Source of the DNA: Candidatus Woesebacteria bacterium RBG_13_46_13
Lineage (GTDB): Bacteria; Patescibacteriota; Microgenomatia; UBA8517
Direction: 5' to 3'
DNA: 64,000 bases
Assembly (NCBI GenBank): GCA_001791995.1
Contig: MGFR01000001.1
Span: 14,880-78,879 of the forward strand
Position numbers and translations under genes: made by a program. The first letter of the stretch is position 1, and every line of letters starts with the position of its first letter. The notes beneath the pieces were generated by a model. That model was given only the letters and a program-made list of their open reading frames with translations. It made no database searches and was not told the DNA's origin. This document shows positions 4,580-27,740 of the stretch, one piece after another.

Positions 4580-4706
4580 ACTGTTCTGGCGATGAAGTAT
4601 TTTCGCGCCCAGTTGCCCGGGAACTATCGTCCTCGCTGAGGCGTTTGACTTCTGAGTTCGGAATGGGATCAGGTCGTTCCACCTCGCTCCAATCACCAGA
4701 ACAGTG
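4580..4706 (-). rRNA. rrf: 5S rRNA
   Basis: The minus-strand sequence contains the 5S core CCTGATCCCATTCCGAACTCAGAAGTCAAACGCC. The terminal helix CACTGTTCTGGTG pairs with CATCGCCAGAACAGTG. Ends are approximate within 5 nt. Confidence 0.8.
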
Positions 4707-4749: not shown

Positions 4750-7668
<2,919 letters not shown>

Positions 7669-7890: not shown

Positions 7891-7986
7891 AATTTAAAAG
7901 CGTGTTTGCTCCACGCAGTTTCCCGCGTGTTTATTTTGGAATATAAGAAACGCTTGTCATTAAATTTGCTTCAATTAGCAAGGCAT

Positions 7987-8016: not shown

Positions 8017-8091
8017 GGGGACAAAAGAACAGGGCCAGGAACCAGAAATCGCACGAGGCGAAACTGGGCCTGGCCCAAGCATCGAATCTTC

Positions 8092-8661
8092 TCACCAAGC
8101 CGCACAAACCTGATCCACAGCGCTCTCCCCCAAGACGGCACCTGCCAGTTCATCGACAAAGCAGTAGAGTGTGTCGTCTGGAAGGTGCATCGTCCAGGTT
8201 TCCCACGGCCTTCCGGGGATTTTTTCCCACTCTCTACCTGAAATTCGGTAATAGAGCTCGCCTCCCAAGCACTCGGGTGCGGGGAAATCATCCACAATGC
8301 AGTGGGCAGAATTCAACCGCCTCGTGGCTAGAAAGCGAATGGCCTCCCCCTCATCGGGTGCCTGGGAAGGGATGGCCTGCTGTCCGGCTTGCCGATGGAG
8401 ATCGAGCTCCTCCTGCTCCATGGCCAGAATGCTCTCTATCAGATCGAGCATCGCCGAATCTGAAGCAAACAGATCCGAAATGCTCTGCTCGTCGTTGGCC
8501 AGGCGCTGGTTGTTTAAAGTTATGTACTCACCTATATAGCCTAGCCCCTCGACGGTCAGACCCCTCGAGGCCTCAAGGCCTTCGACCTTGACCCACAAAC
8601 CCACAACGAACAGGGCCAAGACAATAACCGCAACTGCCAAGATCCAGGTGATCGCTTTCAT
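8092..8661 (-). CDS. Hypothetical membrane-anchored protein (N-terminal TM plus an extracytoplasmic domain of about 150 aa). GC is elevated.
   Basis: 189-aa ORF with TM WILAVAVIVLALFVVGLWV. GC is roughly high-50s percent by eye against a mid-40s background. The overlapping plus-strand ORFs 8001..8591 and 8297..8539 look like shadow ORFs. Confidence 0.55.
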   Translation of the reverse strand: MKAITWILAVAVIVLALFVVGLWVKVEGLEASRGLTVEGLGYIGEYITLNNQRLANDEQSISDLFASDSAMLDLIESILAMEQEELDLHRQAGQQAIPSQAPDEGEAIRFLATRRLNSAHCIVDDFPAPECLGGELYYRISGREWEKIPGRPWETWTMHLPDDTLYCFVDELAGAVLGESAVDQVCAAW

Positions 8662-8806
8662 GCTCCCCTCCTTTGGGAATCAGGTTTATGATTTCAGGGT
8701 GCAAGACTCCGCCAAATGCGGATGCCGAAGTATATCCTATAGATGTTATCAAATCAAACAGGGGCAGTAATCAATTCGCTTTCGCGAAAGGCACTTGCCC
8801 CCGAAC

Positions 8807-9340
8807 TTACTCTACCTGTCCATTGAAACGCTCAATGGCTACCAATATCCCCTCGCCGGTCCGGAAGAAGGCTGGAAGGCTCCATTCATCGGGAGAAACC
8901 ACATCTTGGGCACTTCCCGAGTCTGGATCGTACCAGGCGATGAGCAGATCCCCCGCTCCGATATTGGACAGCGTGGTTTCGGCGATAACCGTTCCGCCTT
9001 TCTCGCGCAAGCAGATGCGCAATTCCTCGCCAATAGGAACATTGACGTAGGTGTTGGCGTCGTAAGGCCCCACCCCCGAGTAGTCTTGCATCTCTCCGAT
9101 GGTGAAATACTCTCCCGCCTCTCCCCGGTGTCCGAAAAAGACCAACGCGTTGTTGTCTAACCCCCGGACCCGGGCCTCGAAGATCATCTGCCTAAACCAG
9201 GCAACGGCCTGCTCCCTCTCCAGACCCGAGACCCTGGCATCGACCGATGAAGCCCTCAAGCCCAGGGTGTAGAGATTGATAATCAACAACAGGAGCAACG
9301 AGTGCAGCAATATCAGGCCAACCTTCAACCACTTGTTCAT
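8807..9340 (-). CDS. Hypothetical membrane-anchored protein. GC is elevated.
   Basis: 177-aa ORF with TM LKVGLILLHSLLLLLIINLY and a GGAGGAG RBS 8 nt upstream. It sits upstream of and co-oriented with 8092..8661. Confidence 0.55.
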   Translation of the reverse strand: MNKWLKVGLILLHSLLLLLIINLYTLGLRASSVDARVSGLEREQAVAWFRQMIFEARVRGLDNNALVFFGHRGEAGEYFTIGEMQDYSGVGPYDANTYVNVPIGEELRICLREKGGTVIAETTLSNIGAGDLLIAWYDPDSGSAQDVVSPDEWSLPAFFRTGEGILVAIERFNGQVE

Positions 9341-9434
9341 TCTTCTCCTCCGGTTTTTAAAGGGCGAATTCGGCGTGGCTCAATATACACCCAAATTGTT
9401 TTCGAGGCAAAATTGTGCTAAATTATGCCAATCC

Positions 9435-9508
9435 CGGGCGATTGGTTCAGCGGTAGAACGCTTTCCTGATAAGAAAGAGGTGGATGGTTCGACTCCATCA
9501 TCGCCCAC
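9435..9508 (+). tRNA. tRNA-Ile (anticodon GAU)
   Basis: GGGCGATTGGTTCAGCGGTAGAACGCTTTCCTGATAAGAAAGAGGTGGATGGTTCGACTCCATCATCGCCCACC. Anticodon loop CTGATAA. This is the canonical rRNA-spacer tRNA, but it is on the opposite strand to the rRNA genes. Confidence 0.9.
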
Positions 9509-9571
9509 CCCATATCCCACGGGGAGTGTGCACTACAATTTAGCCAAACTCGCATATATAATAGAAATCGT

Positions 9572-11704
9572 ATGACCAACCTGACCACCCTACTTCTTAG
9601 GCTTCCCCGTAATATCGAAGTCACACCGGAGGCCGCGCAAACCTTCCTCTCCGCCCTGACCCAGATTAACGGAGTTTCCTTTTTTCAAAGAATAACCGGG
9701 ACTTCTTCTCAGCCTCTTTCTCTCGAAATTGCCCTTATCAACCAACAAATCCAGTTTCTGATTACCTGCGATACGGAGCTGGTTCCGTTTGTTACCACCC
9801 AGATTCAATCCAACTACCCACTGGTAATCACCGAGAAAGTCCAGGACCCGATTGCCCAAAGGCAATTGTTTGTTACCAACCTGACTCTCAGAAACGGCAG
9901 CTATTACCCTTTGGCAACCTACGCCAACTTCACCGACATCGACCCTTTGGCCTCCATTCTTTCAGTTTTATCCAAAAGCAACCCCGACGATGTGGCAATA
10001 GTCCAGGTCGCACTGGAATCCACTTCCTCTTCTTGGCAATCGGCAGGAGCCTCTTTTGCCGAAAAAGGCAGGAAAAACGAGGATGGAACATATGCCCCAA
10101 GGCAGGACCAAAACGTAATTAAAGAGAAGATTTCTTACCCAGGCTTCAAGGTCTCCATTAGGGTTGCTGCCAATACGAATGAAACCCGAAAGGAGATGGT
10201 TTCCGCTTTCGGTGTTTTTTCCAGGGCAGACGGGAATTCTTTTAAGGCCAAGGGTTCTCCCCTGTTTAATAAGTCCGCCCTTTACCAAAATCTTTTCTCC
10301 CGAAAGGTTACCGACAATCAAATTTTAAACATCGTCGAGCTGGCAACTATCTGGCACCTTCCTTCCGACAAAATCAAAACACCAACTATAGCTTGGGGCC
10401 AGGCGGTTCTATCCGAACCTCCTGAAAACCTGCCGGTTGCCCTGGATGCCAACGAAGAGGAGAAAAAGCATATCAACTTCTTCGCCAAGACGCTTTACAA
10501 AAACCACGAAACGATTTTCGGAATTAAAGACATCGACAGAAGAAGACACATTTGGACAATCGGAAAAACGGGTACGGGTAAGTCTACCCTAATTGCCAAC
10601 ATGGCCATCGACGATTTGAAAAAGGGCCGGGGTTTGGCAGTCATTGACCCGCACGGAGACCTTTGCGAGATCATCCTGGACTACATTCCCAAAAGCAGGA
10701 TAGCTGATGTGGTCTACTTTAACCCGGCGGATAAGGATTACCCCATTGTCATCAACCCCCTGGAGGTCACCAACAAGGAGGAGGCGGAACTGGTGGTTTC
10801 AGGAATAGTTTCCATTTTTAACAAGATCTTCGGTTTCTCCTGGGGGCCAAGACTCGAGTACATCTTGAGAAACTCTTTAATGACCCTGGCCGAGATGCCC
10901 GATTCCACCTTAAAAGACGTGCCGCTTCTTCTTACCGACAGGGGCTTTAGAACCCGAGCCGTGGAAACCATCAATGATACGGTGCTGAAAGACTACTGGA
11001 CCTACGAATTTAACAAAATGACGGAAAAGCTGCAGCAGGAAGCCATTGCCCCGATCTTAAATAAAGTCGGGCAGTTTGTGACTTCCCCTTTAATCAGGAG
11101 CGTCATCGGCTCCCCCAAAAGCACGATTCAACTCGATGATGTTATGAACGGAGGCAAAATCCTTTTGGCCAACCTTTCCCAGGGACGCTTGGGAGAGGAT
11201 AACGCGGCCCTTTTAGGAGCAATGCTGATTACCAAACTCCAACTCGCCGCCATGCACCGGGTAGATATGCCGGAGGAACAAAGGCGGGATTTCTATCTTT
11301 ACGTCGACGAGTTCCAAAACTTTGCCACCGGGAGCTTTATCAAGATCATGTCCGAAGCCAGAAAGTACCGCTTAAACATTATGCTGGCGAATCAATACAT
11401 GGCCCAAATTCCCGAAGAGGTCCAAAAGGCAATTTTGGGAAATGCCGGGACAATAGTTTCGTTTGCGGTCGGGGCCTCCGACGGAGAAATTCTTTACAAA
11501 GAGTTTGCGGAGGTCTTCTCCCAAAACGATTTGGTCAATCTTTCCAATTACCAGGTCGCCATCAAAATGACCATCGACGGCTTAACTACCCGGCCGTATC
11601 TTGCCCATACCCTACCCCTGCCGATCTCCATCAACCAAAACAGGGAGAAGGTCATCCGTATCTCGCGCGAGCGCTGGAGCAAGAAGCTCGCAGGCAACCT
11701 ATAA
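9572..11704 (+). CDS. VirD4/TraD/TrwB-like (FtsK-HerA superfamily) P-loop ATPase, a type IV coupling-protein-like protein. Copy 1, with no N-terminal TM.
   Basis: Walker A IGKTGTGKST, then DPHGDL, Walker B FYLYVDEFQNF, and ANQ motifs. 710 aa. It aligns along its whole length with the ORF at 46725..49049 but lacks that ORF's roughly 35-aa N-terminal TM segment. Confidence 0.85.
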   Translation: MTNLTTLLLRLPRNIEVTPEAAQTFLSALTQINGVSFFQRITGTSSQPLSLEIALINQQIQFLITCDTELVPFVTTQIQSNYPLVITEKVQDPIAQRQLFVTNLTLRNGSYYPLATYANFTDIDPLASILSVLSKSNPDDVAIVQVALESTSSSWQSAGASFAEKGRKNEDGTYAPRQDQNVIKEKISYPGFKVSIRVAANTNETRKEMVSAFGVFSRADGNSFKAKGSPLFNKSALYQNLFSRKVTDNQILNIVELATIWHLPSDKIKTPTIAWGQAVLSEPPENLPVALDANEEEKKHINFFAKTLYKNHETIFGIKDIDRRRHIWTIGKTGTGKSTLIANMAIDDLKKGRGLAVIDPHGDLCEIILDYIPKSRIADVVYFNPADKDYPIVINPLEVTNKEEAELVVSGIVSIFNKIFGFSWGPRLEYILRNSLMTLAEMPDSTLKDVPLLLTDRGFRTRAVETINDTVLKDYWTYEFNKMTEKLQQEAIAPILNKVGQFVTSPLIRSVIGSPKSTIQLDDVMNGGKILLANLSQGRLGEDNAALLGAMLITKLQLAAMHRVDMPEEQRRDFYLYVDEFQNFATGSFIKIMSEARKYRLNIMLANQYMAQIPEEVQKAILGNAGTIVSFAVGASDGEILYKEFAEVFSQNDLVNLSNYQVAIKMTIDGLTTRPYLAHTLPLPISINQNREKVIRISRERWSKKLAGNL

Positions 11705-11706
11705 TC

Positions 11707-11734
11707 TTGCAATCCTTGCATTCTGTGGTATAAT
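11707..11734 (+). promoter_or_regulatory. Sigma70-like promoter TTGCAA-N16-TATAAT upstream of the GC-rich gene, with a 5' UTR of about 240 nt.
   Basis: TTGCAA at 11707-11712, a 16-nt spacer, and TATAAT at 11729-11734. Confidence 0.5.
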
Positions 11735-11799
11735 ATCGCAGTTCCCAATTGGCCCTTAAGCGGGCTTCAGATATGGGGTTTTTAGGTTCCTAGTACATT

Positions 11800-11815
11800 A
11801 ACAACGGGAGAACAA
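11800..11815. repeat. Left copy of a perfect 16-bp inverted repeat, AACAACGGGAGAACAA.
   Basis: It is the exact reverse complement of 13224-13239. It lies in the 5' UTR of the GC-rich gene. Confidence 0.6.
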
Positions 11816-11977
11816 AAACAAACGCCATCCCTGGCGATAATCAGGGAAACGCACGGTTTGCCTTAGACGGAGAAGTCTCTTGAGACTGCTAGCATGCAAA
11901 TCTCATGAGGAGCAGTCTCCCAAGGAGATCTATCCGCCAAGGGCAATCCTATTTCAAACGCACAACGGAGGTGCACA

Positions 11978-13159
11978 ATGAAAGGTCGCGGAATCAAGCT
12001 TCTGGCTTTGTTCGCGATCCTCGTTTTGGCTCTCGGCGCCACCGGCGCGGCCTTCGCGGCCCCGCCTCCGGCACCGAACGCCACCGGTCAGGACCAGGTC
12101 TGTCCGCACGACACGGATGGTTGGTCGTCCCATCAGGATCCCGGAACCTTCGGGGCTGTTGAGGGCGCTACCAACTACTGCGTCAAGGGCGGCAGTGAGC
12201 AGTCCGAATGCACCGGCTACCTCGAGATCGGCTCCTTCGAGTTTGTCTCGGGGATCCTCGGCGCTGAAGGCGCCTGCGGCCTTTCCCACTGGTCCTACCA
12301 GATGGAAGATGAGCCGGAGGTGGCCAGCGTTAGCGTCGACCCCGGCTCGTGTTACTGGGATGGCGCGTCCTACACGGACGTCGTCGTCGACATGACCGGC
12401 GCCGGCACGCTGACCATCACCGGGCCTGGCGGGCCGTACACCCGAACGGGTGACGACACGCTGACCTTGGGACCCGGCAGCTACAGCTGGACTTTCGTTC
12501 CGGCCGAGGGCTACGAACTTGAAGGACCCGGCTCGGGTTCCTTCGAAGTCGGGACGTGTGAACCCGAAACGGATCCCGCCTCGGTGAGTGTCGAACTCGG
12601 AACCTGCCGCTGGAGCGAGCAGTCAGGGTCTCAGACCCCACTGTCTTTCACCATCAGCGGCGAGGGCACGTTCTCGATCAACGGTTCCGACTACACCTCC
12701 GACGACGAGATCCTGCTCACGCCGGGAACCTACGGCTGGACTTTCGTTCCGGCCGAGGGGTATCACCTGGTTGGGCCGGGCTCCGGGAGCGTCGAAGTGC
12801 TCTCTTGTGAGCCTCCGCCTCCTGGCGGGGCATCGGGTTCGTTTGCGCTGTACTGCGGTGGCGGGATCAACGTCGCCCTGTCCAATGCCCAGCTCACGAT
12901 CGACGACCTGGACCCGATCCTCGAGAACGGGTCGTACGGGCTGAGCCTCGGTGAGCACACCTTCCTCTGGGAGGCTTTGCAGGGGTTTGAATTCCCTGAG
13001 GGCTTCCTGCTGCGAGGCGTCTTCACCATCGTCCCGTGCGGACCGCCCGACGAGCCGCCTACCGGCCCCGAAGGAGCTCTTCCCATCGCGGAAGGACTCG
13101 CTTTCCTGGCCTTCAGCGGCCTTGGAGCGCTCGGCATCCGGCGCATGAAGAAGCACTAG
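11978..13159 (+). CDS. Secreted Cys-rich repeat protein. Strongly GC-rich and compositionally foreign.
   Basis: 393 aa with signal peptide MKGRGIKLLALFAILVLALGATGAAFA. Two copies of a module of about 75 aa (PGSYSWTFVPAEGYELEGPGSGSFEVGTCEP / PGTYGWTFVPAEGYHLVGPGSGSVEVLSCEP). C-terminus is LPIAEGLAFLAFSGLGALGIRRMKKH, a hydrophobic helix plus a basic tail. Codon usage is dominated by GCC/GGC/CCG, with GC roughly 60-65% by eye. RBS is GGAGG. Confidence 0.8.
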   Translation: MKGRGIKLLALFAILVLALGATGAAFAAPPPAPNATGQDQVCPHDTDGWSSHQDPGTFGAVEGATNYCVKGGSEQSECTGYLEIGSFEFVSGILGAEGACGLSHWSYQMEDEPEVASVSVDPGSCYWDGASYTDVVVDMTGAGTLTITGPGGPYTRTGDDTLTLGPGSYSWTFVPAEGYELEGPGSGSFEVGTCEPETDPASVSVELGTCRWSEQSGSQTPLSFTISGEGTFSINGSDYTSDDEILLTPGTYGWTFVPAEGYHLVGPGSGSVEVLSCEPPPPGGASGSFALYCGGGINVALSNAQLTIDDLDPILENGSYGLSLGEHTFLWEALQGFEFPEGFLLRGVFTIVPCGPPDEPPTGPEGALPIAEGLAFLAFSGLGALGIRRMKKH

Positions 13160-13177
13160 CTTCTCTCTGCCGCCCAA

Positions 13178-13220
13178 CTGAGGGGCACCTGCACCTTTTG
13201 GTGCCCCTCAGTTTCAGTTT
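13178..13220 (+). terminator. Rho-independent terminator of the GC-rich gene.
   Basis: Perfect 12-bp stem CTGAGGGGCACC / GGTGCCCCTCAG with a 10-nt loop, followed by TTTCAGTTTC. Confidence 0.7.
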
Positions 13221-13223
13221 CTC

Positions 13224-13239
13224 TTGTTCTCCCGTTGTT
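13224..13239. repeat. Right copy of the 16-bp inverted repeat, TTGTTCTCCCGTTGTT.
   Basis: Reverse complement of 11800-11815. It lies immediately after the terminator. Confidence 0.6.
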
Positions 13240-13262
13240 CTACTTCATCTGCTAAAATAACC

Positions 13263-14267
13263 ATGAAAGAACAAAAACCAATTCATATGTCCGAACAGAA
13301 TAAATCATCCCTCGATTCTTGGCGCAGCAAACCCGCCGAGACCCCCAAACCCAAACTCTCAAGAAGAGGTTTTCTCAAAGGCGCCGTTTTGGGCGGAATC
13401 GGTCTCGGAGGAGCAGTCTATTCGGGTTTGAAGTTTTTGGAAGGATTGGGGCTTGAGCTGCCGCATAACTCCTTCGAACAAGAGCTACAGGCTCTTCCCA
13501 GGGAAGCTACGCCTACCCCCTTTCAGCCACGGGAGACCACTCCCGCGTCTTCGACTCAAACTCCTGAAGCAACGCCTGAACCATCCCCTACTCCGGAGGC
13601 CATCAATTATTGGGCTTTTGCCAAGGCGGATTTTTCCGATTCCGAACACTTAATTGACATGATGATTACCCTGAGGGATTCTTCCAGCCTTTTGGTTCCA
13701 TCCTTCATCCCCATCTCCTGGCATGATGGTCTTCAGCTAAGCGTAGATTTTGATCGGAGAAGAAATACCGGCCTTACCTATCTTGACGAGGACAGACGAA
13801 AAATACTTAATTTACACTCAGGAAGAGAAGGACCTTTGCACTCCGGCTACACCATGTGGGAAACCCAACTGGCTATTGAAACGGATGGACGGGGCAATAG
13901 AATTTATCCTGCCCAAGCCGACGAAAAACTTAGAACCCAGTTTATGGGAGCGGATGTCTTAATAAGACAAACCGAGGCAGGACTTGCCAAGATAGTAGCC
14001 GCGGTCAGGGTCCCCCCCAGCCTGGTCTACGAATCCACCCAGCACGTCTATGAAGAAACAGACCCTTCAGGTAGTGTCACCAACGAAGGGATAATCCCCT
14101 GGCTGGCAGCCAACTTCCCGGACAGCGGATTTGCGGATGTTGTCAACGACCGGGAGGTTTTAATTATTAAATTCTGCGGCAGAATCTTAAGCGGAGAGCG
14201 GGAGGATACCAGAATCGATTCGCCTTATCAGCAGGCACGCTTCTTCTTTGCCCTAAAGCAAAGTTAA
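13263..14267 (+). CDS. Hypothetical exported protein with a twin-arginine (Tat)-type signal, a PT-rich linker, and a C-terminal domain of about 200 aa.
   Basis: The track ORF is 13224..14267; the likely start is the ATG at 13263 (MKEQKP...). Signal SRRGFLKGAVLGGIGLGGAVYS matches S-R-R-x-F-L-K. The linker is rich in P/T/E. Confidence 0.7.
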   Translation: MKEQKPIHMSEQNKSSLDSWRSKPAETPKPKLSRRGFLKGAVLGGIGLGGAVYSGLKFLEGLGLELPHNSFEQELQALPREATPTPFQPRETTPASSTQTPEATPEPSPTPEAINYWAFAKADFSDSEHLIDMMITLRDSSSLLVPSFIPISWHDGLQLSVDFDRRRNTGLTYLDEDRRKILNLHSGREGPLHSGYTMWETQLAIETDGRGNRIYPAQADEKLRTQFMGADVLIRQTEAGLAKIVAAVRVPPSLVYESTQHVYEETDPSGSVTNEGIIPWLAANFPDSGFADVVNDREVLIIKFCGRILSGEREDTRIDSPYQQARFFFALKQS

Positions 14268-14281
14268 CTTATTTTCCCACT

Positions 14282-14312
14282 AAAAAACCACCTCATTAAA
14301 GGGTGGTTTTTT
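14282..14312. terminator. Bidirectional intrinsic terminator. It ends the plus-strand CDS and lies about 100 nt beyond the 16S 3' end on the minus strand.
   Basis: AAAAAACCACC-TCATTAAAG-GGTGGTTTTTT, with A-tract and T-tract on either side. Confidence 0.7.
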
Positions 14313-14411
14313 GTTGTCTTTGACGACCAGGAAATGACTAGGAGGAAGCCCGTTTTCTTAACAGTGAAACGGCGAATTTAAAACTGGGGTGTAAAATACC
14401 ACACTCCTTAG

Positions 14412-15869
14412 AAAGGAGGTGATCCATCCGCACCTTCCAGTACGGATACCTTGTTACGACTTAATCTTCATCGCTGGTGTCACCTTCTGCCCGAACATCG
14501 GACATTCGGGTGCCCCCAACTTTGCTGACTTGACGGGCGGTGTGTACAAGACCTGAGAACGTATTCACCGCGACATAGCTGATTCGCGATTACTACCAAT
14601 TCCGCGTTCATGAGGGCGAGTTGCAGCCCTCAATCCCTACTGAGAAGCCGTTTGATGGGATTAGCTCCGTGTTACCACTTGGCAACCCATTGTCGGCTTC
14701 ATTGTAGCATGTGTGTTGCCCCGGACATAAGGGCCATGCTGACTTGACGTCGTCCCCACTTCCTCCTCGCAAAGCGAGGCTGTACCATATGAATATTCAA
14801 CATATGGAAGGGGTTGCGCTCGTTACCCCACTGAAGGGAACACCCCACGGCACGAGCTGACGACAGCCATGCAACACCTGTGCTATCATCCTTACGGATC
14901 GGTCTCCGTTTCTGGAGACTTAAACGATAGCATGTCAAACCCGGGTAAGGTCCTTCGGTTCGTCTCGAATTAAACCACATGCTCCACTGGTTGTGCAGGT
15001 CCCCGTCAATTCCTTTGAGTTTTAAGCTTGCGCTCGTACTCCCCAGGCGGCTCGCTTAACGCGTTAGCTTACGGAACCCCCGATAAATCGAGGATCCCTA
15101 GCGAGCAAAGTTTACGGCTAGGACTACAGGGGTCTCTAATCCCTTTCGCTCCCCTAGCTGTCGTTCCTCAGCGTCAAAGATTCCCTAGCTACTTGCCTTC
15201 GCCCTTGGTGTTCCTCTCGATATCAACGGATTTCACCCCTACACCGAGAGTTCCAGTAGCCCCGAGAACTTTCAATCTAAGTAGTATTACACCCCTTCCC
15301 AAGGTTAAGCCCTGGTCTTTGAAGTGTAACTTACCTAGTCGCCTACGAAACGCTTTACGCCCAGTAAATCCGGATAACGCTTGCACCCTCTGTATTACCG
15401 CGGCTGCTGGCACAGAGTTAGCAGGTGCTGATTCTCCAAGCTCATTGGTGCTTGGCAAAAGAGGTTTACAACCCGAAGGCCTTCATCCCTCACGCGGCGT
15501 CGCGGCGTCAGACTTTCGTCCATTGCGCACGATTCCCAGTTGCTGCCACCCGTAGGTGTATGGGCCGTGTCTCAGTCCCATTCTGGGGGGTCACGCTCTC
15601 ACGTCCCCTACCCGTCATAGCCTTGGTAGGCCATTACCCTACCAACAAGCTGATGGGAGATAGGCTCATCCCTCGGTGCGCAGTTACGCGCTTTCTCCTT
15701 GCGGACTTATGCGGTATTAGCCCGTCTTTCGACGGGGTATTCCCCGCCAAGGGGTAGATTCCTATCTTATACTCAGCCGTTCGCAACTTGCCTCTTGCGA
15801 GGCCCGTTTTACTTGCATGCTTAAAGCACGCCGCCAGCGTTCATCCTGGACCAGGATCAAATCCTCAAA
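14412..15869 (-). rRNA. rrs: 16S rRNA, about 1.46 kb, no intron apparent
   Basis: Minus-strand 5' end GAGGATTTGATCCTGGTCCAGGATGAACGCTGGCGGCGTGC. The 3' end is ...GTAACAAGGTATCCGTACTGGAAGGTGCGGATGGATCACCTCCTTTC. Confidence 0.95.
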
Positions 15870-16201
15870 TTGTGACGGAAGGAAAACCACACGAACGTGG
15901 CTCTCCCGTCCTATATAAAGCACTCCTAGTCATTTCCTGATTGCCGAATATTAGCATTCGGTCCCGCATGGCTCCCGTTAGAGCCTGGTGGGATCAAGAA
16001 ATATTAATTGCTGTCTTTAATTGTTAAGGTTCAAGCTAAAAGTAACAGGAAACAAGCTATAAGTAGGCAGAAAAGACGAAAAATCAAACTAATGAAAATA
16101 AACTAAGCCTTTCTTTACTTGTAACTTGTTGCCTAATACTTTTAAGGTCCTGAAGTTGTTACCCTAAAGGGAAGTTAACCTCTACTGAAGAAAATTTTGA
16201 C

Positions 16202-20141: not shown

Positions 20142-20891
20142 TTACTTCAAAGCCTCTTCAATGGTGACCTTCAGGCTCTCAAAAGGAACCGCTCCGGGGA
20201 CAAGCCAAACATCGCCATTTTTGTTCATAATATAGTTACCCGGTGTACCGTTGACCCCAGCATTTGAACCGCTTTGATAATCCGCATCGACAATGTTTTC
20301 GTACTTCTTGGCCGCATAGCAGGAAGAGAAATCCGCTGCTTTGACTCCCGCTTTGGTTGCTGCAGTTTTTAAACCAGCCTCGGAAAGGGTTGTTTCTTGG
20401 TTGGCAAATACATAGTCCGAAAATTTCCAGAAAGCATCGTTCCCCCCAAGGGCCGAGACGCACTCCGCGGCATTGGCCGCGGGTCTGGCCCAGGGATGGA
20501 GTGTATCCAGAGGAAAGTGTCTATAAACCCAGGCCAACTTGTCTCCGTATTCGGCCACCGCCTGTTGAGCGGTTGTATCGAAAGTTTTACAGAAAGGACA
20601 CTGGTAATCCGAATATTCGATTAAGAAGACTTCAGCATTCAAAGACCCCCTGATGTGATCTTTGTCGCTGGGTTTTTCTAACTTAGAGGCCTCATCGGCG
20701 GTTAGTTTGCCGCTGGTATCCCCAACCGTATCCGTGGGGCTGCCCGTAGATGGGGTGCCTTTTTCCAAGACCGTTACTTTTTGCCACAAAGCCCCAACCG
20801 CTCCGGCAAGAATAATGGTCAAAACCAGAAGCACGGGAACAAATTTATCCAGAAGACCCTTGTTGGAAAGTTTCGGAAGCGATACGGACAT
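20142..20891 (-). CDS. DsbA-family thiol:disulfide oxidoreductase, membrane-anchored
   Basis: N-terminal TM helix, thioredoxin-fold CPFC active site (YSDYQCPFCKTF), 249 aa. Confidence 0.8.
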   Translation of the reverse strand: MSVSLPKLSNKGLLDKFVPVLLVLTIILAGAVGALWQKVTVLEKGTPSTGSPTDTVGDTSGKLTADEASKLEKPSDKDHIRGSLNAEVFLIEYSDYQCPFCKTFDTTAQQAVAEYGDKLAWVYRHFPLDTLHPWARPAANAAECVSALGGNDAFWKFSDYVFANQETTLSEAGLKTAATKAGVKAADFSSCYAAKKYENIVDADYQSGSNAGVNGTPGNYIMNKNGDVWLVPGAVPFESLKVTIEEALK

Positions 20892-20923
20892 GGAAACTAT
20901 TCTTCACCAAAAGCAAATACTTG

Positions 20924-21880
20924 TCAACCCTTAAGTTCGGCGAGGTAACTTAATACATCCATGCCTGCCATGCAGCCGTATCCTGCAGCTGTCACCGCCT
21001 GGCGATAGTGCCAATCGTGCACATCTCCGGCAACAAAAATGCCCGGGACGTTGGTTTTGGAGTTCTCGTAAACTTTGATATATCCCTTCTCGTCAAGCTC
21101 AATGGGGCCTTTAAAAAGCTCACTTTCCGGTCTATGACCGATTGCAATAAATATCCCGTCTAGGGCAAGTTCAGAAGTTGTATTGTCCTTGTTGTTTTTT
21201 AAGATTGCCTTCTCCAGTTTTTGCTCACCTTTCGCTTCAACTACCTCGGTATTCCACAATATTTTAACTTTGGGGTTAGCCATCACTTTTTGCTGCATGG
21301 CCTGGGAGGCCCGGAATGCATCCCTGCGGTGGATAATCGTGACCGAGGTTGCATACTTTGTCAGAACCAAAGCCTCCTCCATTGCAGAATCCCCTCCTCC
21401 GACCACCGCCACGTTCTTGTCCTTGAAAAAAGGAGCATCGCAGGGAGCGCAGGAGGAAACCCCCCTGCCGATAAGTTTGGAGATTCCGGGAGCATCGAGC
21501 CAGAGTGTTGCTGCACCGGTTGCGATGACTATCGTCTTGGCCAGATATTTCTCTCCGGCTGAGCTAATCTCGAAAGGTTTCTTGCCCAGATCAACGCTTT
21601 GGACATTGGACTGGATAAACTCGGCCCCGAACCTCTCGGCTTGTTTCCTCATGGCCATCATTAGGTCGGGCCCCTGAATTCCGTCGGGAAAACCGGGAAA
21701 GTTATCAACGCCGGTTGTGAGCATTAGCTGTCCGCCCCACTTTTCTCCTCCAAGAATAACCGATGAAGCAGCACCGCGAGTGGTATAAATTGCGGCAGTT
21801 AAGGCAGCCGGACCCGAACCAATAATCGCAACATCCCAAGCTTCCCCCTCTTTTGGTTTGAGAGCAAAAACTTCGTCCAT
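20924..21880 (-). CDS. trxB: Thioredoxin-disulfide reductase
   Basis: FAD motif IIGSGPAALTAAIY, a redox-active CAPC pair, NAD(P) motif VVGGGDSAMEEA. 318 aa. Confidence 0.9.
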   Translation of the reverse strand: MDEVFALKPKEGEAWDVAIIGSGPAALTAAIYTTRGAASSVILGGEKWGGQLMLTTGVDNFPGFPDGIQGPDLMMAMRKQAERFGAEFIQSNVQSVDLGKKPFEISSAGEKYLAKTIVIATGAATLWLDAPGISKLIGRGVSSCAPCDAPFFKDKNVAVVGGGDSAMEEALVLTKYATSVTIIHRRDAFRASQAMQQKVMANPKVKILWNTEVVEAKGEQKLEKAILKNNKDNTTSELALDGIFIAIGHRPESELFKGPIELDEKGYIKVYENSKTNVPGIFVAGDVHDWHYRQAVTAAGYGCMAGMDVLSYLAELKG

Positions 21881-21890
21881 TTTTCCTTGA

Positions 21891-22163
21891 CTACATTACG
21901 GGAGCTGCCGGCGGTGTACCACCGGTAGATCCAGTCCCTTCTTCCTTGGCTGGTTCCTCAGCGGTCGTAGCTGTCGGCTCCTCTGTGGAAGCGGGCACTG
22001 TCGGTTCAGGTGTTACAACCGGTGTCTCCGGAACAACTGTCGGCTCGGGAGTAACTACCGGTGTCGGCATAGGTGCTTGAACTGGCGTATCTACCGCCGG
22101 TGCGGCGGGAGTGTCAGTTGGAGCTCCTGGTACTTGCGGGTTCTGTGTTTGATTCGGATCCAA
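21891..22163 (-). CDS. Low-complexity Pro/Thr/Glu-rich ORF filling the trxA-trxB gap. It may use a TTG start, and may not be coding.
   Basis: 90 aa; PT-repeat composition only. Confidence 0.3.
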   Translation of the reverse strand: MDPNQTQNPQVPGAPTDTPAAPAVDTPVQAPMPTPVVTPEPTVVPETPVVTPEPTVPASTEEPTATTAEEPAKEEGTGSTGGTPPAAPVM

Positions 22164-22487
22164 TTAACTCACCCCCTTTTTCAATAAATCTGCGAATGCT
22201 TGTTTTCCGGCAAAGCCCACCTGGCGGTCCAACTCTTTTCCTTCTTTAAAAAGAATCGTTGTGGGGATACTCATCACTCCGAATTTCTGAGCAATGGCTG
22301 GGTTTTCATCAACATTAAGCTTGGCTATGCCTATTTTTCCTTTGTATTCATCGGAGAGCTCCTCAAGGACAGGCTCGGCCATCTTGCAAGGACCGCACCA
22401 GGAAGCCCAAAAATCTACAAGTACCGGAGTTGCGCCTTTTATGACCTTCTCTTCAAAATCTTTCTCGCTGGTATCAAAGGTTGCCAT
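22164..22487 (-). CDS. trxA: Thioredoxin
   Basis: WCGPC active site (FWASWCGPCKM). 107 aa. Confidence 0.9.
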   Translation of the reverse strand: MATFDTSEKDFEEKVIKGATPVLVDFWASWCGPCKMAEPVLEELSDEYKGKIGIAKLNVDENPAIAQKFGVMSIPTTILFKEGKELDRQVGFAGKQAFADLLKKGVS

Positions 22488-22542
22488 GTCGTTTCAATAT
22501 AACGATTGGTGTATAGCTTAGTCAACCTTCAATTTTCACAAT

Positions 22543-24723
22543 CTAAATCTTTTTCAGCTTTAACCTTAAGGAGTTCCCGACCACGGAGACGGAACTGGCG
22601 GCCATCGCGGCCGAGGCAAACATGGGGTTAAGCAACAATCCGAAAAAAGGGTAAAGGACTCCCATGGCAACCGGAATTAATAGCACGTTATAGCCAAAAG
22701 CCCAGAACAAATTTTGCTTGATAATTGCCAAGGTGGCCCTGCTTAAATCCAGAGCGGAGAGAACACTACCAAGATTGCTGTTAACCAAGGTTATTCCCGA
22801 TGTTTCGATGGCCACATCGGTTCCGGTACCCATGGAGATGCCGACGTCGGCAGCCGCCAAGGCCGGGGCGTCGTTGATACCATCCCCCACAAAAGCAACA
22901 CCACCCGTAAACTCTCGAACTTTTTGGGCTTTTTGAGAAGGTAAAACGCCTGCCAAAATATTCTTTATTCCGATTTTTCCCGCAATTCCCTTTGCCGTTC
23001 TCGGGTTATCCCCCGTTACCATCCAAACGTCAATCCTTCTCTTGTCTAATTCCCCGATGACCTCCTTGGCCTCCGGTTTTTCGGTATCGGAAATGGCGAT
23101 AGCCCCCATCGCTTTTCCGTTTACCCCTAAGAGGGCTACTGTTTTCCCCGTTTCTTCCAAGAGTCTGATCCTGTTTTCAAATTTGCCAAAATCGATATTT
23201 TCCTTTTCCATCAGGAGTCTATTTCCCAATACCGATTTTTTCCCGTCAACAACCCCGACTACTCCCATCCCGGAAAAGGATCTAAAACTCTCAACTTTGG
23301 AAAGTGCTGTTTGTTTGTCTTTGGCATACTCCAATACCGCCTCGGCCAAGGAATGCTCCGAACCTTGCTCCAGACTGGCTGCAACTCGGATAATCTCCGC
23401 AGCGCCGATTATCCGGGTAACCCGAGGTTTACCTTGGGTCAATGTTCCGGTTTTATCAAAAATCAAGGTCTTGGTTTTGTTGAGTATTTCAAGCGATGCC
23501 GCGTCTTTAATCAGAATTCCCCTGGAGGCTCCCTTACCGATGGCAACGATAATTGCCGTGGGGGTTGCCAAACCCAGTGCGCAAGGACAAGCGATAATCA
23601 GTACCGAGATCATGCTGACAATGGCCTGGTCCAGGGTTCCAAAACTAATCCAGACAAGAAATGTAAGAGCGGCCAGAGCCAAGACAACCGGAACAAAATA
23701 CGAAGATACCGAATCCGCCAGTCTTTCTATCGGAGCTTTTGAGCCTTGGGCTTCGGAAACAAGCTTGATAATGCCTGCCAACACAGTATCTCCAGCATTA
23801 CTTGTTGCCTTAACCAGCAAGGTTCCGTTGATATTTAAAGTCGCCCCAATTACGTTTGAGCCGATTTGTTTATCAACGGGCAAGCTCTCGCCGGTAACCA
23901 TGGCTTCATCGATGCTGGCCTCTCCCTGAACGATAATTCCGTCAATGGGAATTTTCTCCCCTGGCCTGATGCGCAGCAAATCCCCCACTTTCACCTCTTC
24001 GATGGGGATATCTATCTCTTCTTTACCCCGAACGACACGGGCGCTTTTAGGCTGAAGCATGCCCAGTTTTTTAATCGCATCCGAAGTTCTGGCTTTGGCT
24101 TTGGCCTCCAAATAGCGGCCCAAGAGTATCAGGGTAATAATTACCGCCGAAGTGTCGAAATAGAGATTACCCCCGGGGAATATTTTCGGAAAAAAGAGGT
24201 TGACTATGGAAAATCCGTAGGCGGCGGTAGTTCCCAGCGCCACCAGGGTATCCATACTCGCTGTTTTGTTTTTGAGTCCCGACCAGGCCGCCAAATAAAA
24301 GTCTCTGCCTCCCCAAAACTGGACCACCGAAGCAAAGATGAAGGTTGTGTAGACTTCAAAAAATATTTTCGGTATAAAGGAGAAAATGCCGGGAAAAGTT
24401 CCCGCCATAATAAAAAGGCTTAATATCACCGATACCAGAAATTTAGCCCTCAGCCCCTTAAGCTCCTTGACTTTCTCAGCTTCCTTGATCTTCTGTGTGC
24501 CCTGGGCGGTATCGGTAATGATTGCTCTATAACCCGCTTTGGCTACCTCAGCCGCAAAATCCTTGGGTTTGGCAATCTTGGCATCATATTCCAGAATCGC
24601 CTGCTCGCTGCCGTAATTTACCGAAGCCGAAAGTACCCCTTTTGTTTTTGTAAGATGCTTCTCGAGGAGTTTCGCGCAGGAAGCGCAGTGCATTCCGACA
24701 ATCGGAAATGAAGTTTTTGTCAC
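22543..24723 (-). CDS. copA: Copper-translocating P1B-type ATPase
   Basis: N-terminal HMA domain GMHCASCAKLLE, CPC in TM6 (IIACPCALGLATP), DKTGTLT, and GDGINDAP. 726 aa. Confidence 0.95.
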   Translation of the reverse strand: MTKTSFPIVGMHCASCAKLLEKHLTKTKGVLSASVNYGSEQAILEYDAKIAKPKDFAAEVAKAGYRAIITDTAQGTQKIKEAEKVKELKGLRAKFLVSVILSLFIMAGTFPGIFSFIPKIFFEVYTTFIFASVVQFWGGRDFYLAAWSGLKNKTASMDTLVALGTTAAYGFSIVNLFFPKIFPGGNLYFDTSAVIITLILLGRYLEAKAKARTSDAIKKLGMLQPKSARVVRGKEEIDIPIEEVKVGDLLRIRPGEKIPIDGIIVQGEASIDEAMVTGESLPVDKQIGSNVIGATLNINGTLLVKATSNAGDTVLAGIIKLVSEAQGSKAPIERLADSVSSYFVPVVLALAALTFLVWISFGTLDQAIVSMISVLIIACPCALGLATPTAIIVAIGKGASRGILIKDAASLEILNKTKTLIFDKTGTLTQGKPRVTRIIGAAEIIRVAASLEQGSEHSLAEAVLEYAKDKQTALSKVESFRSFSGMGVVGVVDGKKSVLGNRLLMEKENIDFGKFENRIRLLEETGKTVALLGVNGKAMGAIAISDTEKPEAKEVIGELDKRRIDVWMVTGDNPRTAKGIAGKIGIKNILAGVLPSQKAQKVREFTGGVAFVGDGINDAPALAAADVGISMGTGTDVAIETSGITLVNSNLGSVLSALDLSRATLAIIKQNLFWAFGYNVLLIPVAMGVLYPFFGLLLNPMFASAAMAASSVSVVGNSLRLKLKKI

Positions 24724-24968
24724 CTTTTTTTAAGTACCTGCATCACCTCGGATATGGCTTCTCTGCTTTTACCTGCTTTTATCGAATCCGAGACGCAGGT
24801 CTCGAGATGGTTTTTAAGAACAACCTCGTCGGCTTTCCTCAGGGCAGCCTGAACTGCTATGGATTGATGAACAACGTTGATGCAGTACTCCCCTTGCTCC
24901 AGCATCTTCACCACTTTATCCAAATGGCCCCGGGCAATCTGGTAACGATGTAAGGCTTGGCTTTTCAT
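24720..24968 (-). CDS. csoR: CsoR/RcnR-family metal-sensing transcriptional repressor
   Basis: 82-aa all-helical protein with conserved Cys/His positions (C...H...C). It lies immediately upstream of and overlapping copA. Confidence 0.8.
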   Translation of the reverse strand: MKSQALHRYQIARGHLDKVVKMLEQGEYCINVVHQSIAVQAALRKADEVVLKNHLETCVSDSIKAGKSREAISEVMQVLKKR

Positions 24969-24969
24969 C

Positions 24970-24997
24970 TTGACACTAAAATCGGATATACTATACT
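24970..24997 (+). promoter_or_regulatory. Sigma70-like promoter TTGACA-N16-TATACT for the plus-strand copper operon. A mirror-image TTGACT/TATACT promoter for csoR-copA is on the minus strand, about 24991-25026.
   Basis: TTGACA at 24970-24975 and TATACT at 24992-24997. On the minus strand TTGACT is plus 25021-25026. The palindrome sits between the two -10 and -35 elements of both. Confidence 0.5.
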
Positions 24998-25001
24998 AGT
25001 A

Positions 25002-25020
25002 TATCCCCCCAGGGGGGATA
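25002..25020. promoter_or_regulatory. CsoR-type operator: 19-bp palindrome TATCCCCCCAGGGGGGATA.
   Basis: A perfect inverted repeat around a central A, with AT-flanked C6/G6 tracts. It resembles known CsoR operators of the ATACCC...GGGTAT type. It overlaps the predicted TSS of the plus-strand promoter. Confidence 0.6.
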
Positions 25021-25037
25021 CAGTCAAGAAGAATAAT

Positions 25038-26033
25038 ATGCAGCAAATCTGGTTGGCATTTCTGACGGGCCTGACAAGTGGAGCGATTTCTTGTTTTGCC
25101 ATTCAAGGCGGTCTTTTGGCCTCCTCTCTGGCTCAAGACAAAGAGCCCCAAAAGGATAGTAAATCTCTTAAGATTCTGATTTTCCTGGGTTTTAAAATTC
25201 TTTTTTACAGCCTTCTTGGTTTGGGTTTAGGACTTGCGGGTTCAAAATTGGCGATTTCAACCAATATCCAGGCCGCTCTGCAAATCTTGGTCGGACTATT
25301 TCTCTTGGCAACGGCCGCCAGAATTGTAAATTTGCATCCCCTATTCCGTTATTTTGTAATTCAGCCCCCAACTTTCCTTTACAAAATTATCAAGAAACAA
25401 ACCAAGCTGGGTTCCTATTTTGCCCCGGCGACATTGGGCGCAATGACAATACTTATCCCCTGCGGGGTAACCCAAGCTATGATGCTTTTGGCAATTGCAT
25501 CAGGAAGTGCTCTCTATGGGGCAGCCATTATGTTTGCCTTTAGTCTGGGTACCTCCCCCGTATTTTTTGCCCTCGGTCTGGCAGCCGCCGAAATGTTAAA
25601 AAGGAAGGCCTTCGTTGTAGCCTCCGCAATTCTGATACTCCTGCTCGGCGTGCTCTCATTCAACGCGGGCCTGGCCATCCTCGGCTCAAAATATACAATT
25701 CAGAACCTTTATAAGAGTTTGTTTTCCGTAAATGGCTCCGCCAAACAGGCCAGAATCATCCAGGGTAAACAGGAAGCAACGATTAATGTGACTGCGACAG
25801 GATACAGAGCTGACGTGGACACCCTCAAAGCCGGAGTTCCGGTGAGCCTAAAGCTGGTTAGTCAAAATTCATATAGCTGTGCCAGGGCTTTTGCCATACC
25901 GGAAATGGGAATATCAATACTGCTTGCCCCGACCGGAACCAGGGTTTTGGAGTTTACTCCCACAAAAACCGGCTCTCTTGTCTACACCTGCAGTATGGGT
26001 ATGTATACCGGAAGCTTTAATATCGTTCCATGA
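25038..26033 (+). CDS. Polytopic membrane protein with a DsbD_2/TauE-like TM region carrying Cys, plus a C-terminal cupredoxin-like domain. A putative copper-handling protein.
   Basis: The track ORF 24957..26033 overlaps the promoter and operator, so the start is probably MQQIWLAF at 25038. TM Cys motifs are SGAISCFAIQGG and ILIPCGVTQAMM. The C-terminal beta-domain ends PTKTGSLVYTCSMGMYTGSFNIV. Confidence 0.65.
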   Translation: MQQIWLAFLTGLTSGAISCFAIQGGLLASSLAQDKEPQKDSKSLKILIFLGFKILFYSLLGLGLGLAGSKLAISTNIQAALQILVGLFLLATAARIVNLHPLFRYFVIQPPTFLYKIIKKQTKLGSYFAPATLGAMTILIPCGVTQAMMLLAIASGSALYGAAIMFAFSLGTSPVFFALGLAAAEMLKRKAFVVASAILILLLGVLSFNAGLAILGSKYTIQNLYKSLFSVNGSAKQARIIQGKQEATINVTATGYRADVDTLKAGVPVSLKLVSQNSYSCARAFAIPEMGISILLAPTGTRVLEFTPTKTGSLVYTCSMGMYTGSFNIVP

Positions 26034-26227
26034 GCGGAAAAACTTACAAAATTACGGGCATGGATTGTCCCAGTTGCGCAATGTATATCCAGAGCGAACT
26101 TGAAGATGCGGGGGTTGATGCCGAGGTAAATTATGCATCGCAAAAGCTAATCCTAAAAAATGGAAATCTAAGCTTCTCCGAGGTAAAAAAACTGGTTGAA
26201 AAGGCGGGTTATAAGCTTATTCCATAG
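26030..26227 (+). CDS. copZ: Copper chaperone, HMA domain
   Basis: 65 aa with the GMDCPSCAMYI (MxCxxC) metal-binding motif. Confidence 0.85.
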   Translation: MSGKTYKITGMDCPSCAMYIQSELEDAGVDAEVNYASQKLILKNGNLSFSEVKKLVEKAGYKLIP

Positions 26228-26897
26228 TCTTTTCTGGACCATGGTCGTGGAAAGCCTGGATAAAGGCCACTATTCGGGCCTCATCTACAGATTCCAGTCT
26301 GTCTATCCTCCCCCAGGCTGTTAGGGCCAGGGCGGTATCCATGCCCACTCTGGGGGTCACTATCACCAGCTTGGCTACCTTTGTAAACTCCGAAAGCCTG
26401 CTAACCAGCACCTTACAACTCTCCGTATTGAAGGATTCCGGGAGCGCAACTTCCTTCTCGGGAGGGTTGGCTGGTGTAAACCAACTTATATCCCCTACCG
26501 GCTGGACCTTCATATGCTTTAACAGTTCCCCACTGTCAGTAGACTGGGTAACCGGTTCGTCGTGGGCATATGCCCTGCCGACCGCAAAAGGGCTATATCC
26601 GGAACTTAATTTGGAGCAGTCATACCAAATAACGACGTAGCCGTGTTCCATGGAGTGAATAAAGTAGCCATCGGAAATAAGCCTGTCGTAGACTCCCGGC
26701 TTGGCCCAAACGGCAAAATGCGGGCCCGACGTGGGCGGGTTGGAATTATAGTCAACACCGGCAATATCGGTTACATGATCCCTGCTCAAGGAAGGAACCG
26801 CCTGGCCGGGCAGCGGTTTGGTGACCAATTTATAGATTCCGTAGGAGGCCAAAACAATTACCAAGAAAAACACAAATACGATTTGTCTTTTGCGCAT
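26217..26897 (-). CDS. DUF3105-like membrane-anchored protein
   Basis: N-terminal TM helix, with SGPH and HSMEHGYVVIWY (HxxEHG) motifs. Confidence 0.65.
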   Translation of the reverse strand: MRKRQIVFVFFLVIVLASYGIYKLVTKPLPGQAVPSLSRDHVTDIAGVDYNSNPPTSGPHFAVWAKPGVYDRLISDGYFIHSMEHGYVVIWYDCSKLSSGYSPFAVGRAYAHDEPVTQSTDSGELLKHMKVQPVGDISWFTPANPPEKEVALPESFNTESCKVLVSRLSEFTKVAKLVIVTPRVGMDTALALTAWGRIDRLESVDEARIVAFIQAFHDHGPEKTME

Positions 26898-26907
26898 TTC
26901 AAATACC

Positions 26908-27438
26908 CTACAGCAAAAACGCGAAGATTAAAAGTAGTGCCAGATTTGCCAGCCAATACTGTTTCTCCCTGCCCTCGAGGATGAGCGGAAAATTTCTAAA
27001 CCAGGTCGCAAGATTCCCCGTCTGGGTCAGATCCACGATTTGATCAACCAGCATATGCAGCAGAAAAGCCAAAACCAAACCCCTGCCCAAAATGCTTCCC
27101 GAGGAGGTTAAAACCCAAAAAGCCAAGACCGTAAAAATAAGCTGAAAGGTGGCGGTATGAAAGATAATTTTGGTTCTTTCGTACCTGGTTTCCGCCAAAA
27201 GCTGGAGTGTGGCCAGAATGTTTTTCCTATCCAGCATTGAGCTTGCCCTTTGCGAAGAAAGCTCATAGGGTCTTAAGAAAAAGATATATATAAAATGGTC
27301 GACATCGGGCAGAATCGTTCCCAGTATTCCACCTACCCAAAAAGGCCAGAAGGAAAGATCCAGATAGCCTTTGATTAAGGAGACAAAGATTAAAAAGGAG
27401 ATTAAAAAGGCAAAATGGATGAAAATTTCTTTCTTCAT
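26908..27438 (-). CDS. Membrane protein, possible membrane-bound metal-dependent hydrolase (YdjM-like)
   Basis: 176 aa, 4-5 TM segments, His-rich motifs HFIYIFF and LLHMLVDQIVD. Confidence 0.5.
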   Translation of the reverse strand: MKKEIFIHFAFLISFLIFVSLIKGYLDLSFWPFWVGGILGTILPDVDHFIYIFFLRPYELSSQRASSMLDRKNILATLQLLAETRYERTKIIFHTATFQLIFTVLAFWVLTSSGSILGRGLVLAFLLHMLVDQIVDLTQTGNLATWFRNFPLILEGREKQYWLANLALLLIFAFLL

Positions 27439-27464
27439 TGGCAGGATAAACTCATTTTACACTA

Positions 27465-27740
27465 TTACCTAATTTCAAAATCAGAAAATTCACCCGTTGC
27501 TTTTTCGAAAACTACGTCGACGTGGATAACCTTGGCCAACCTGGGTCCAGCCTGGCAACTTTTAACCATTTCTTTTACTTTTCCTTTAGAGCCTTCCAAA
27601 ACCGCTTCGACCTTGCCGTCCGCAAGATTACTAACCCAACCAGTTAATGTTAATTCTTGGGAGCGTTTTTTGGTCCAATCACGAAAAAATACTCCCTGGA
27701 CCCTACCCTCTACATAGAGATGTGCCCTTATGGAGTCCAT
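27465..27740 (-). CDS. acyP: Acylphosphatase
   Basis: VQGVFFR signature and GWVSNLADGKVE. 91 aa. Confidence 0.85.
   Translation of the reverse strand: MDSIRAHLYVEGRVQGVFFRDWTKKRSQELTLTGWVSNLADGKVEAVLEGSKGKVKEMVKSCQAGPRLAKVIHVDVVFEKATGEFSDFEIR

Follow-up and report, generated by a model that had tools for sequence, protein, structure and literature searches.

A perfect 19-bp palindrome between two divergent copper operons is a probable operator of a CsoR-family repressor

The DNA analysed here, which we call the window, is a stretch of 64,000 nucleotides from a Woesebacteria (CPR) genome. Within it, the genes of a CsoR-family regulator and of a membrane protein diverge from a short control region. 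The start codons of these two genes are 69 bp apart (24969-25037), and a G/C-rich palindrome lies inside this gap. The genes relevant to the analysis are the following.

24720..24968, minus strand: csoR, 82 aa, PF02583 (E=2.4e-20)
22543..24723, minus strand: copA, Cu(I)-exporting P1B-type ATPase with HMA, E1-E2_ATPase and Hydrolase (HAD) domains
25038..26033, plus strand: DsbD_2-cupredoxin fusion, 331 aa, ATG at 25038, with PF13386 and a C-terminal PF13473 (Cupredoxin_1)
26030..26227, plus strand: copZ-like metallochaperone, 65 aa, PF00403 (HMA), CxxC motif, 4-bp overlap with the fusion gene
26217-26897, minus strand: DUF3105 gene, converging on copZ with an 11-bp overlap
22525..22496, minus strand: promoter-like site TTGACT-N18-TATATT, before the thiol-redox cluster
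22487..22164, minus strand: thioredoxin, downstream of copA
22163..21891, minus strand: Pro/Thr-rich ORF of 90 aa, no Pfam match
21880..20924, minus strand: thioredoxin-reductase-like flavoprotein of the thiol-redox cluster
20891..20142, minus strand: DsbA-like protein of the thiol-redox cluster
15872..14412, minus strand: 16S rRNA
7666..4751, minus strand: 23S rRNA
4700..4584, minus strand: 5S rRNA

The csoR and copA genes form one operon, as copA begins 4 bp before the end of csoR and overlaps its stop codon. The copA product scores 632.8 bits against the TIGR01511 model (ATPase-IB1_Cu; cut-off 397). The divergent operon starts with the DsbD_2-cupredoxin gene, whose product is a membrane protein matching no NCBIfam family, and continues with the copZ-like gene, whose product has weak matches to the CopZ family. 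An initial annotation, made from the sequence, had named csoR, copA, a membrane/cupredoxin gene and copZ, and all these identities hold. When the fusion protein is aligned with 52 orthologs (53 sequences in total), C19, C142, C281, C318, M320 and M322 are strictly conserved, and H100 almost so (0.98). A NicO-type nickel exporter likewise matches the DsbD_2 model; the membrane domain of the fusion might therefore act as a metal permease instead of a conduit for thiol electrons.

The surroundings of the copper genes deserve a brief description. A thiol-redox cluster (20142-22487) follows copA directly on the same minus strand, and the copper genes and the disulfide-stress genes may be functionally linked. 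At least six related genomes (L026, L035, L036, L056, L059, L061) also have a DUF3105 homolog next to the copper locus, which hints that DUF3105 acts in the same process. Further away, the rRNA genes are unlinked within 4584-15872: the 23S and 5S genes lie about 6.7 kb from the 16S gene, and between them are tRNAs and a segment where the GC content rises (0.585 at 12-14 kb). With the Rfam models, the 64-kb window gave matches to rRNA and tRNA genes and to nothing else, and the csoR locus gave none.

The closest solved relative of the window regulator is the CsoR of Mycobacterium tuberculosis (2hh7, E=5e-18), and an exact match to the csoR-locus protein is found on a record from Candidatus Woesebacteria bacterium RBG_19FT_COMBO_47_8. 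Residues Y28, C29, H54, C58 and E74 align with Y35, C36, H61, C65 and E81 of the M. tuberculosis protein and are invariant in 29 homologs. The fingerprint is thus x-C-H-C with a Tyr/Glu second shell, that of Cu(I)-sensing CsoR. Sensors of nickel and cobalt are set apart by the N-terminal W position, the fingerprint of RcnR being H-C-H-H (PMC11672702). The window protein has no residue at the W position because its ORF, which starts 13 residues before the GHL anchor, cannot exceed 82 aa, and its Z position is Cys, not His. No Ni/Co exporter adjoins csoR in the window: its neighbours are copA and copZ, not genes of the NicO, MFS or CDF types. One feature of the protein counts against its acting at the palindrome. 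Helix 1 of the Streptomyces lividans CsoR carries an RLXR motif, of which the second Arg is essential for DNA binding, and the window protein reads R-Y-Q-I at this place. Its residues 7-11 are H-R-Y-Q-I, with H7 nearly invariant in the clade. The NreA-like relatives that share the TCC-N9-GGA dyad described below retain RLKR, and the dyad change is therefore not simply explained by the RLXR motif.

Four elements can be delimited in the control region.

24970..24997, plus strand: promoter of the DsbD_2-cupredoxin/copZ operon, TTGACA (24970-24975), N16, TATACT (24992-24997), scan score 11/12
24998..25027, minus strand: promoter of csoR-copA, TTGACT (25027..25022), N18, TATACT (25003..24998), scan score 10/12
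25002..25020, no strand: predicted CsoR operator, TATCCCCCC-A-GGGGGGATA, a perfect 9+1+9 inverted repeat
24992..25003, no strand: TATACTAGTATA, TATACT and its reverse complement, i.e., back-to-back -10 hexamers

The two promoters, whose hexamers are consensus matches, are the two best promoter-like sites found by the scan in 22000-27500. Both had been described in the initial annotation with the same hexamers and spacers, its element ending at 25026, one base short of the minus -35 hexamer, which reaches 25027. Transcription of csoR-copA would start around 24991 on the minus strand and that of the divergent operon around 25004 on the plus strand. The palindrome fills the whole 18-bp spacer of the csoR promoter, touching both hexamers, and covers positions ~+1 to +16 of the predicted divergent promoter, just downstream of the plus -10. 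It overlaps core promoter elements (as defined by consensus), including those of the regulator's own gene, as is usual in the family. Contrary to the initial annotation, it is not centred between the promoters: its centre (25011) is 13 bp off their mirror axis (~24998).

Other symmetries in the gap have simpler origins. The AT-only palindrome TATACTAGTATA, listed in the initial annotation as a second palindrome, is present and overlaps the -10 boxes, but its symmetry arises because two TATACT boxes abut, and none of 79 aligned related control regions has a counterpart. We therefore rejected it as a second operator. A 10-nt inverted repeat with a 3-nt loop (GGATATACTA / TAGTATATCC, 24984-25006) overlaps the plus -10 and the left edge of the operator, and its left arm echoes the GGATAT end of the operator half-site. 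This repeat and the repeat TTCATCTTGAC/GTCAAGAAGAA reflect the mirror-image promoters and have no counterpart in the other related loci. Sites of MerR/CueR-type activators consist of a dyad in an over-long spacer of 19-20 bp, with a merR-family gene nearby. The spacers in the window are of 16 and 18 bp, and the flanking genes that were examined showed no MerR-family domain. The operator box of CopY/CopR, TACANNTGTA (PMC7253601), is absent from 24969-25037 by direct reading.

The sequence TATCCCCCCAGGGGGGATA at 25002-25020 consists of two arms (25002-25010 and 25012-25020) that are 100% complementary and 1 nt apart, as found by direct reading and by a repeat finder. This agrees with the perfect 19-bp C6/G6 palindrome of the initial annotation; the 19-mer differs from its reverse complement at one position because of the odd central base. 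Operators of the CsoR/RcnR family are pseudopalindromes with a run of at least four G or C (PMC10318464), and the window has C6-A-G6 inside its perfect repeat. The assignment to the ATACCC...GGGTAT class has to be corrected: the half-sites read ATCCCC/GGGGAT. The core ATCCCC-N5-GGGGAT lies at 25003-25019, and the dyad, TCC-N9-GGA and not TAC-N9-GTA, at 25004-25018. The palindrome is the only site of its kind in the window. Searched with up to three mismatches, the 19-mer matches only itself in the 64 kb, with 0.06 matches expected by chance.

To place the site in a comparative context, we gathered 80 related loci with a homolog profile. Each comes from a different species-level genome, and all are Patescibacteria-like; their CsoR proteins are 56-79% identical. 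Many of these Patescibacteria-type loci (L006, L009, L012, L013, L016 and others) belong to metagenome-assembled genomes (MAGs) titled 'uncultured Gammaproteobacteria bacterium', one to a MAG titled 'Actinomycetota' and one to a MAG titled 'Alphaproteobacteria'; these are probably mislabelled bins. Searches by tblastn with the window proteins revealed copA downstream of csoR in 68 of the 80 loci, the divergent DsbD_2-cupredoxin gene in 55 and copZ downstream of the latter in 50, the full divergent order of the window (copZ and the fusion gene on one side, csoR and copA on the other) being kept in 50. In seven loci (L012, L014, L017, L046, L054, L055, L074; ~3300-3600) csoR and copA are separated by a small ORF for a stand-alone cupredoxin-like protein. 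In the first six it comes besides the divergent fusion gene where this is present, and at L074 no fusion gene was detected.

The palindrome is conserved in these loci. A loose scan for C4+ N0-6 G4+ gave a match at most 250 bp upstream of csoR in 64 of the 80 loci, against 15 matches in the remaining ~450 kb. The upstream matches always show the 13-bp core with AT...AT flanks, although the pattern did not require them. A position weight matrix (PWM) built from the related sites has the consensus ATATCCCCCCAGGGGGGATAT and exceeds 12 bits within 260 bp upstream of csoR in 76 of the 80 loci; it was seeded on exact ATCCC-N7-GGGAT, which makes its outer columns circular, and the loose scan is the unbiased evidence. 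With this matrix the window site (ATATCCCCCCAGGGGGGATAC) scores 32.7 bits out of a maximum of 35.3, nothing else in the 64-kb window exceeds 8 bits, and shuffled sequences give 0.135 matches above 12 bits. Conservation falls on the outer ATCCCC/GGGGAT, and the five bases in the middle vary, with a preference for extended tracts. Absence of the palindrome upstream of orthologous copA genes had been named at the outset as an observation that would speak against an operator, and the 76 loci show the opposite.

Only five PWM matches lie elsewhere in the ~450 kb of related loci, and four of them head a longer operon that contains csoR. In L037, L064, L077 and L080 (e.g., L080:622-3873) the operator heads such a long operon, with csoR internal. 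The order is DUF1573, a Cys-rich protein of 326 aa, a membrane protein of 281 aa, csoR, DUF5676, a stand-alone cupredoxin and copA; the 326-aa and 281-aa proteins have no Pfam matches. In L013, a second site with the perfect consensus ATATCCCCCCAGGGGGGATAT (976-992) is found inside a perfect TTGACA-N17-TATAAT, 2 kb from csoR. A thioredoxin gene begins ~90 bp from this site, and no convincing ORF follows the promoter in its own direction.

Wherever the divergent DsbD_2-cupredoxin gene is present (55 of 55 loci), the site falls between the start of this gene and that of csoR. At the related loci the site invariably coincides with core promoter elements; three or more geometries can be told apart, and they differ between lineages. 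In ~23 loci it occupies the spacer of the csoR promoter, some of these promoters being perfect TTGACA-N17-TATAAT. In a second arrangement it occupies the spacer of the divergent promoter, and in a third it is bordered directly by a TTGACA at one edge, a TATACT standing 7 bp beyond the opposite edge. The sequence of the site is kept while the promoter geometry shifts, which is the behaviour of a protein-binding operator and not of a transcript feature.

We then scanned metagenome contigs for TATCCCCCCNGGGGGGATA and found at least 120 loci, with GC contents of 0.33-0.72. These loci are not a random sample, and all figures on them hold among the matches listed. A CsoR-family ORF is present in 95 of the 120 contigs with the 19-mer, mostly adjoining it. 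The linkage with PF02583 holds from both sides: the site is present in 76 of the 80 loci found by the protein, and the protein in 95 of the 120 loci found by the site (among the matches listed). The residues C-H-C occupy the X-Y-Z positions in 64 of 74 adjacent regulators. Loci of the Patescibacteria type, with copA, the fusion gene and copZ, are only ~8 of the 120 listed, and the 'CopA' tblastn matches on these contigs may include non-copper P1B ATPases. Most of the other regulators among the matches listed have His-rich N-termini (e.g., MSDHEHPHPHTHQTHDAIIKRLKRADGHL) and precede exporters of the NicO/RcnA-like, MFS, CDF, RND or EamA types. By a crude count on stop-to-stop ORFs, two or more His fall in the N-terminal tail of 60 out of 83 listed regulators; such exporters adjoin 36 of these 60. 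We therefore rejected the motif as a copper-specific marker, given that the identical 19-mer mostly fronts Ni/Co-type relatives among the metagenome matches listed. As far as these sequences tell, the palindrome is a mark of the CsoR/RcnR family, not of copper. Since the 19-mer is used mainly by Ni/Co-type relatives, the assignment of the window system to copper rests on the protein fingerprint and the gene neighbours only.

Taken together, these results lead us to propose, with a probability of about 85%, that the palindrome serves as operator for the 82-aa CsoR-family repressor encoded beside it and switches the two divergent copper operons. The best of the alternatives accepts the operator but gives its CsoR-family protein another inducer, either nickel or cobalt, as in NreA and InrS, or a thiol-reactive signal. 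The identical 19-mer mostly accompanies His-rich regulators next to NicO, MFS, CDF and EamA exporters (among the matches listed), the nickel sensor NreA also uses a TCC-N9-GGA dyad (PMC12724321), and the C-H-C triad is common to the nickel sensor InrS, of fingerprint H-C-H-C (PMC11672702). Some relatives in the clade also have one His in the N-terminal tail. Against this, the window protein lacks W-position residues even in its longest ORF of 82 aa, its second-shell Y28 and E74 match those of the M. tuberculosis CsoR, no Ni/Co exporter is adjacent, and the putative targets are a TIGR01511 copper ATPase, a CopZ-like chaperone and a cupredoxin with a C/C-x-M-x-M cluster. We thus regard a non-copper inducer as improbable.

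It is less probable still, indeed very unlikely, that the palindrome is a 5' GC hairpin stabilising the plus mRNA, a DNA cruciform or the site of an unlinked regulator. The predicted plus transcript would open with a 6-bp GC hairpin of -10.3 kcal/mol, but this fold is no better than expected from composition (z=-1.0; 32 of 200 shuffled sequences folded equally well or better). Many of the related sites lie in the untranscribed -35/-10 spacer, in one or both directions, and are equally conserved; the conserved outer ATCCCC/GGGGAT with a variable centre is typical of recognition by a protein. The poor fold and the variable promoter geometry across loci led us to reject a function at the RNA level. 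An unlinked regulator fits poorly with the tight linkage of the motif to csoR-family genes, and neither the CopY box (TACANNTGTA) nor a MerR-type spacer of 19-20 bp is present in the gap. A functionless chance repeat in a promoter-rich gap, for which only the short length of the element speaks, is effectively refuted by conservation: 0.06 matches are expected, 76 of the 80 loci keep the site with CsoR proteins only 56-79% identical, and the ~450 kb of background hold ~5 matches.

If the palindrome is the CsoR operator, the switch might work as follows. Without copper, apo-CsoR would occupy 25002-25020, as a tetramer or a pair of tetramers by analogy with characterised members of the family. 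Because the operator fills the csoR spacer and covers the divergent start, the bound repressor would block both promoters, with RNA polymerase either excluded or trapped at each. Binding of Cu(I) by C29, H54 and C58 would then release CsoR from the DNA, a response established for CsoR proteins (PMC3902906, PMC10318464). Release would allow expression of csoR-copA, i.e., of the autoregulated repressor and the Cu(I) efflux ATPase, and of the DsbD_2-cupredoxin-copZ operon, i.e., of a membrane protein with a predicted Cu(I) site and a chaperone. The binding of CsoR, copper as the inducer, the start sites and the stoichiometry are what we infer from sequence and from better-known relatives. The presumed targets are those expected of such a switch, copper efflux and chaperone genes (copA, copZ) and the gene of a cupredoxin protein, the position of the operator being what suggests their control.

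To our knowledge, almost no transcription-factor sites have been defined in CPR bacteria, and we found no relevant paper on the regulation by CsoR in Patescibacteria. The locus provides a concrete cis-regulatory prediction for these uncultivated organisms: one 19-bp site and one 82-aa repressor for two operons, within a region of 69 bp. It also flags the conserved DsbD_2-cupredoxin fusion as a probable member of the copper regulon. The odds lean slightly towards a broader proposition, namely that the copper-type CsoR of Microgenomates-type Patescibacteria uses the TCC-N9-GGA operator, often the identical 19-mer, of Ni/Co-type relatives in other phyla, and that the DsbD_2-cupredoxin protein belongs to its conserved regulon. 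If true, DNA recognition in the CsoR/RcnR family would be conserved independently of metal specificity, and the fusion protein, with its invariant C...C-x-M-x-M cluster, would be a new copper-handling component of minimal cells. We know of no TCC-N9-GGA operator characterised for a repressor other than the nickel repressor NreA. The dyad is widespread and common to copper-type and Ni/Co-type members, which calls for caution when inferring the metal from the operator.

Among the known systems, the M. tuberculosis CsoR is the closest solved protein, with identical copper ligands and second-shell residues. Its cso operator, GTAGCCCACCCCCAGTGGGGTGGATAC, is likewise a G/C-tract pseudopalindrome overlapping the -10 and -35 elements (PMC10318464), but it is longer, with interrupted tracts and an inverted GTA...TAC dyad, and lacks the divergent two-operon layout.

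The type-2 CsoR operators are more similar. The S. lividans consensus, ATATACCCCTNAGGGGTATAT, has a conserved ATACCC-N5-GGGTAT; the TAC-N9-GTA dyad is common to CsoR sites of S. lividans, Bacillus subtilis, Staphylococcus aureus and Listeria monocytogenes, and a complement swap of any base of this dyad abolished binding of the S. lividans protein (PMC3902906). The window shares the centre-aligned 6-N5-6 geometry, the C-tract followed by a G-tract and the AT-rich flanks. It also has copZA-type genes, an x-C-H-C protein predicted to sense Cu(I) and, by prediction, autoregulation. The difference is one base per half-site, TAC/GTA in the type-2 operators and TCC/GGA in the window, and helix 1 reads R-L-x-R in S. 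lividans and R-Y-Q-I here. The N9 geometry is kept, but the canonical TAC-N9-GTA dyad is absent from the window and from practically every related locus, L053 and L057 having hybrid sites whose right half is of the GTA type (GGGTAT).

The closest operator is that of NreA, a Ni-responsive CsoR/RcnR-family repressor of Mesorhizobium, and the paper describing it was the sole relevant match of a literature search with the strings ATCCCCCC/GGGGGGAT (PMC12724321). NreA controls the putative nickel efflux genes nreXY from the operator TATCCtctcgggggGGATA, located in a -35/-10 spacer, and changing either TCC or GGA to AAA makes expression constitutive, which shows that both triplets are essential (PMC12724321). 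Both are present in the window, at 25004-25006 and 25016-25018. The two systems share the 19-bp frame TATCC-N9-GGATA, the G/C-rich centre and the location in the spacer of the regulator's own promoter: 25002-25020 fits this frame exactly, in the 18-bp spacer of the minus promoter. They differ in the centre, a single G7 tract (type 1) in NreA and a symmetric C6-A-G6 in the window. The NreA relatives have His-rich N-termini, whereas the window regulator has no such tail and lies next to copA, copZ and the cupredoxin protein gene. The palindrome is, in conclusion, a well-supported yet ordinary case of a known type of bacterial switch, and it leaves the general picture of CsoR regulation unchanged. 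What is modestly new is a clade of copper-type CsoR with an NreA-type dyad, and a 19-mer that is common across metal specificities.
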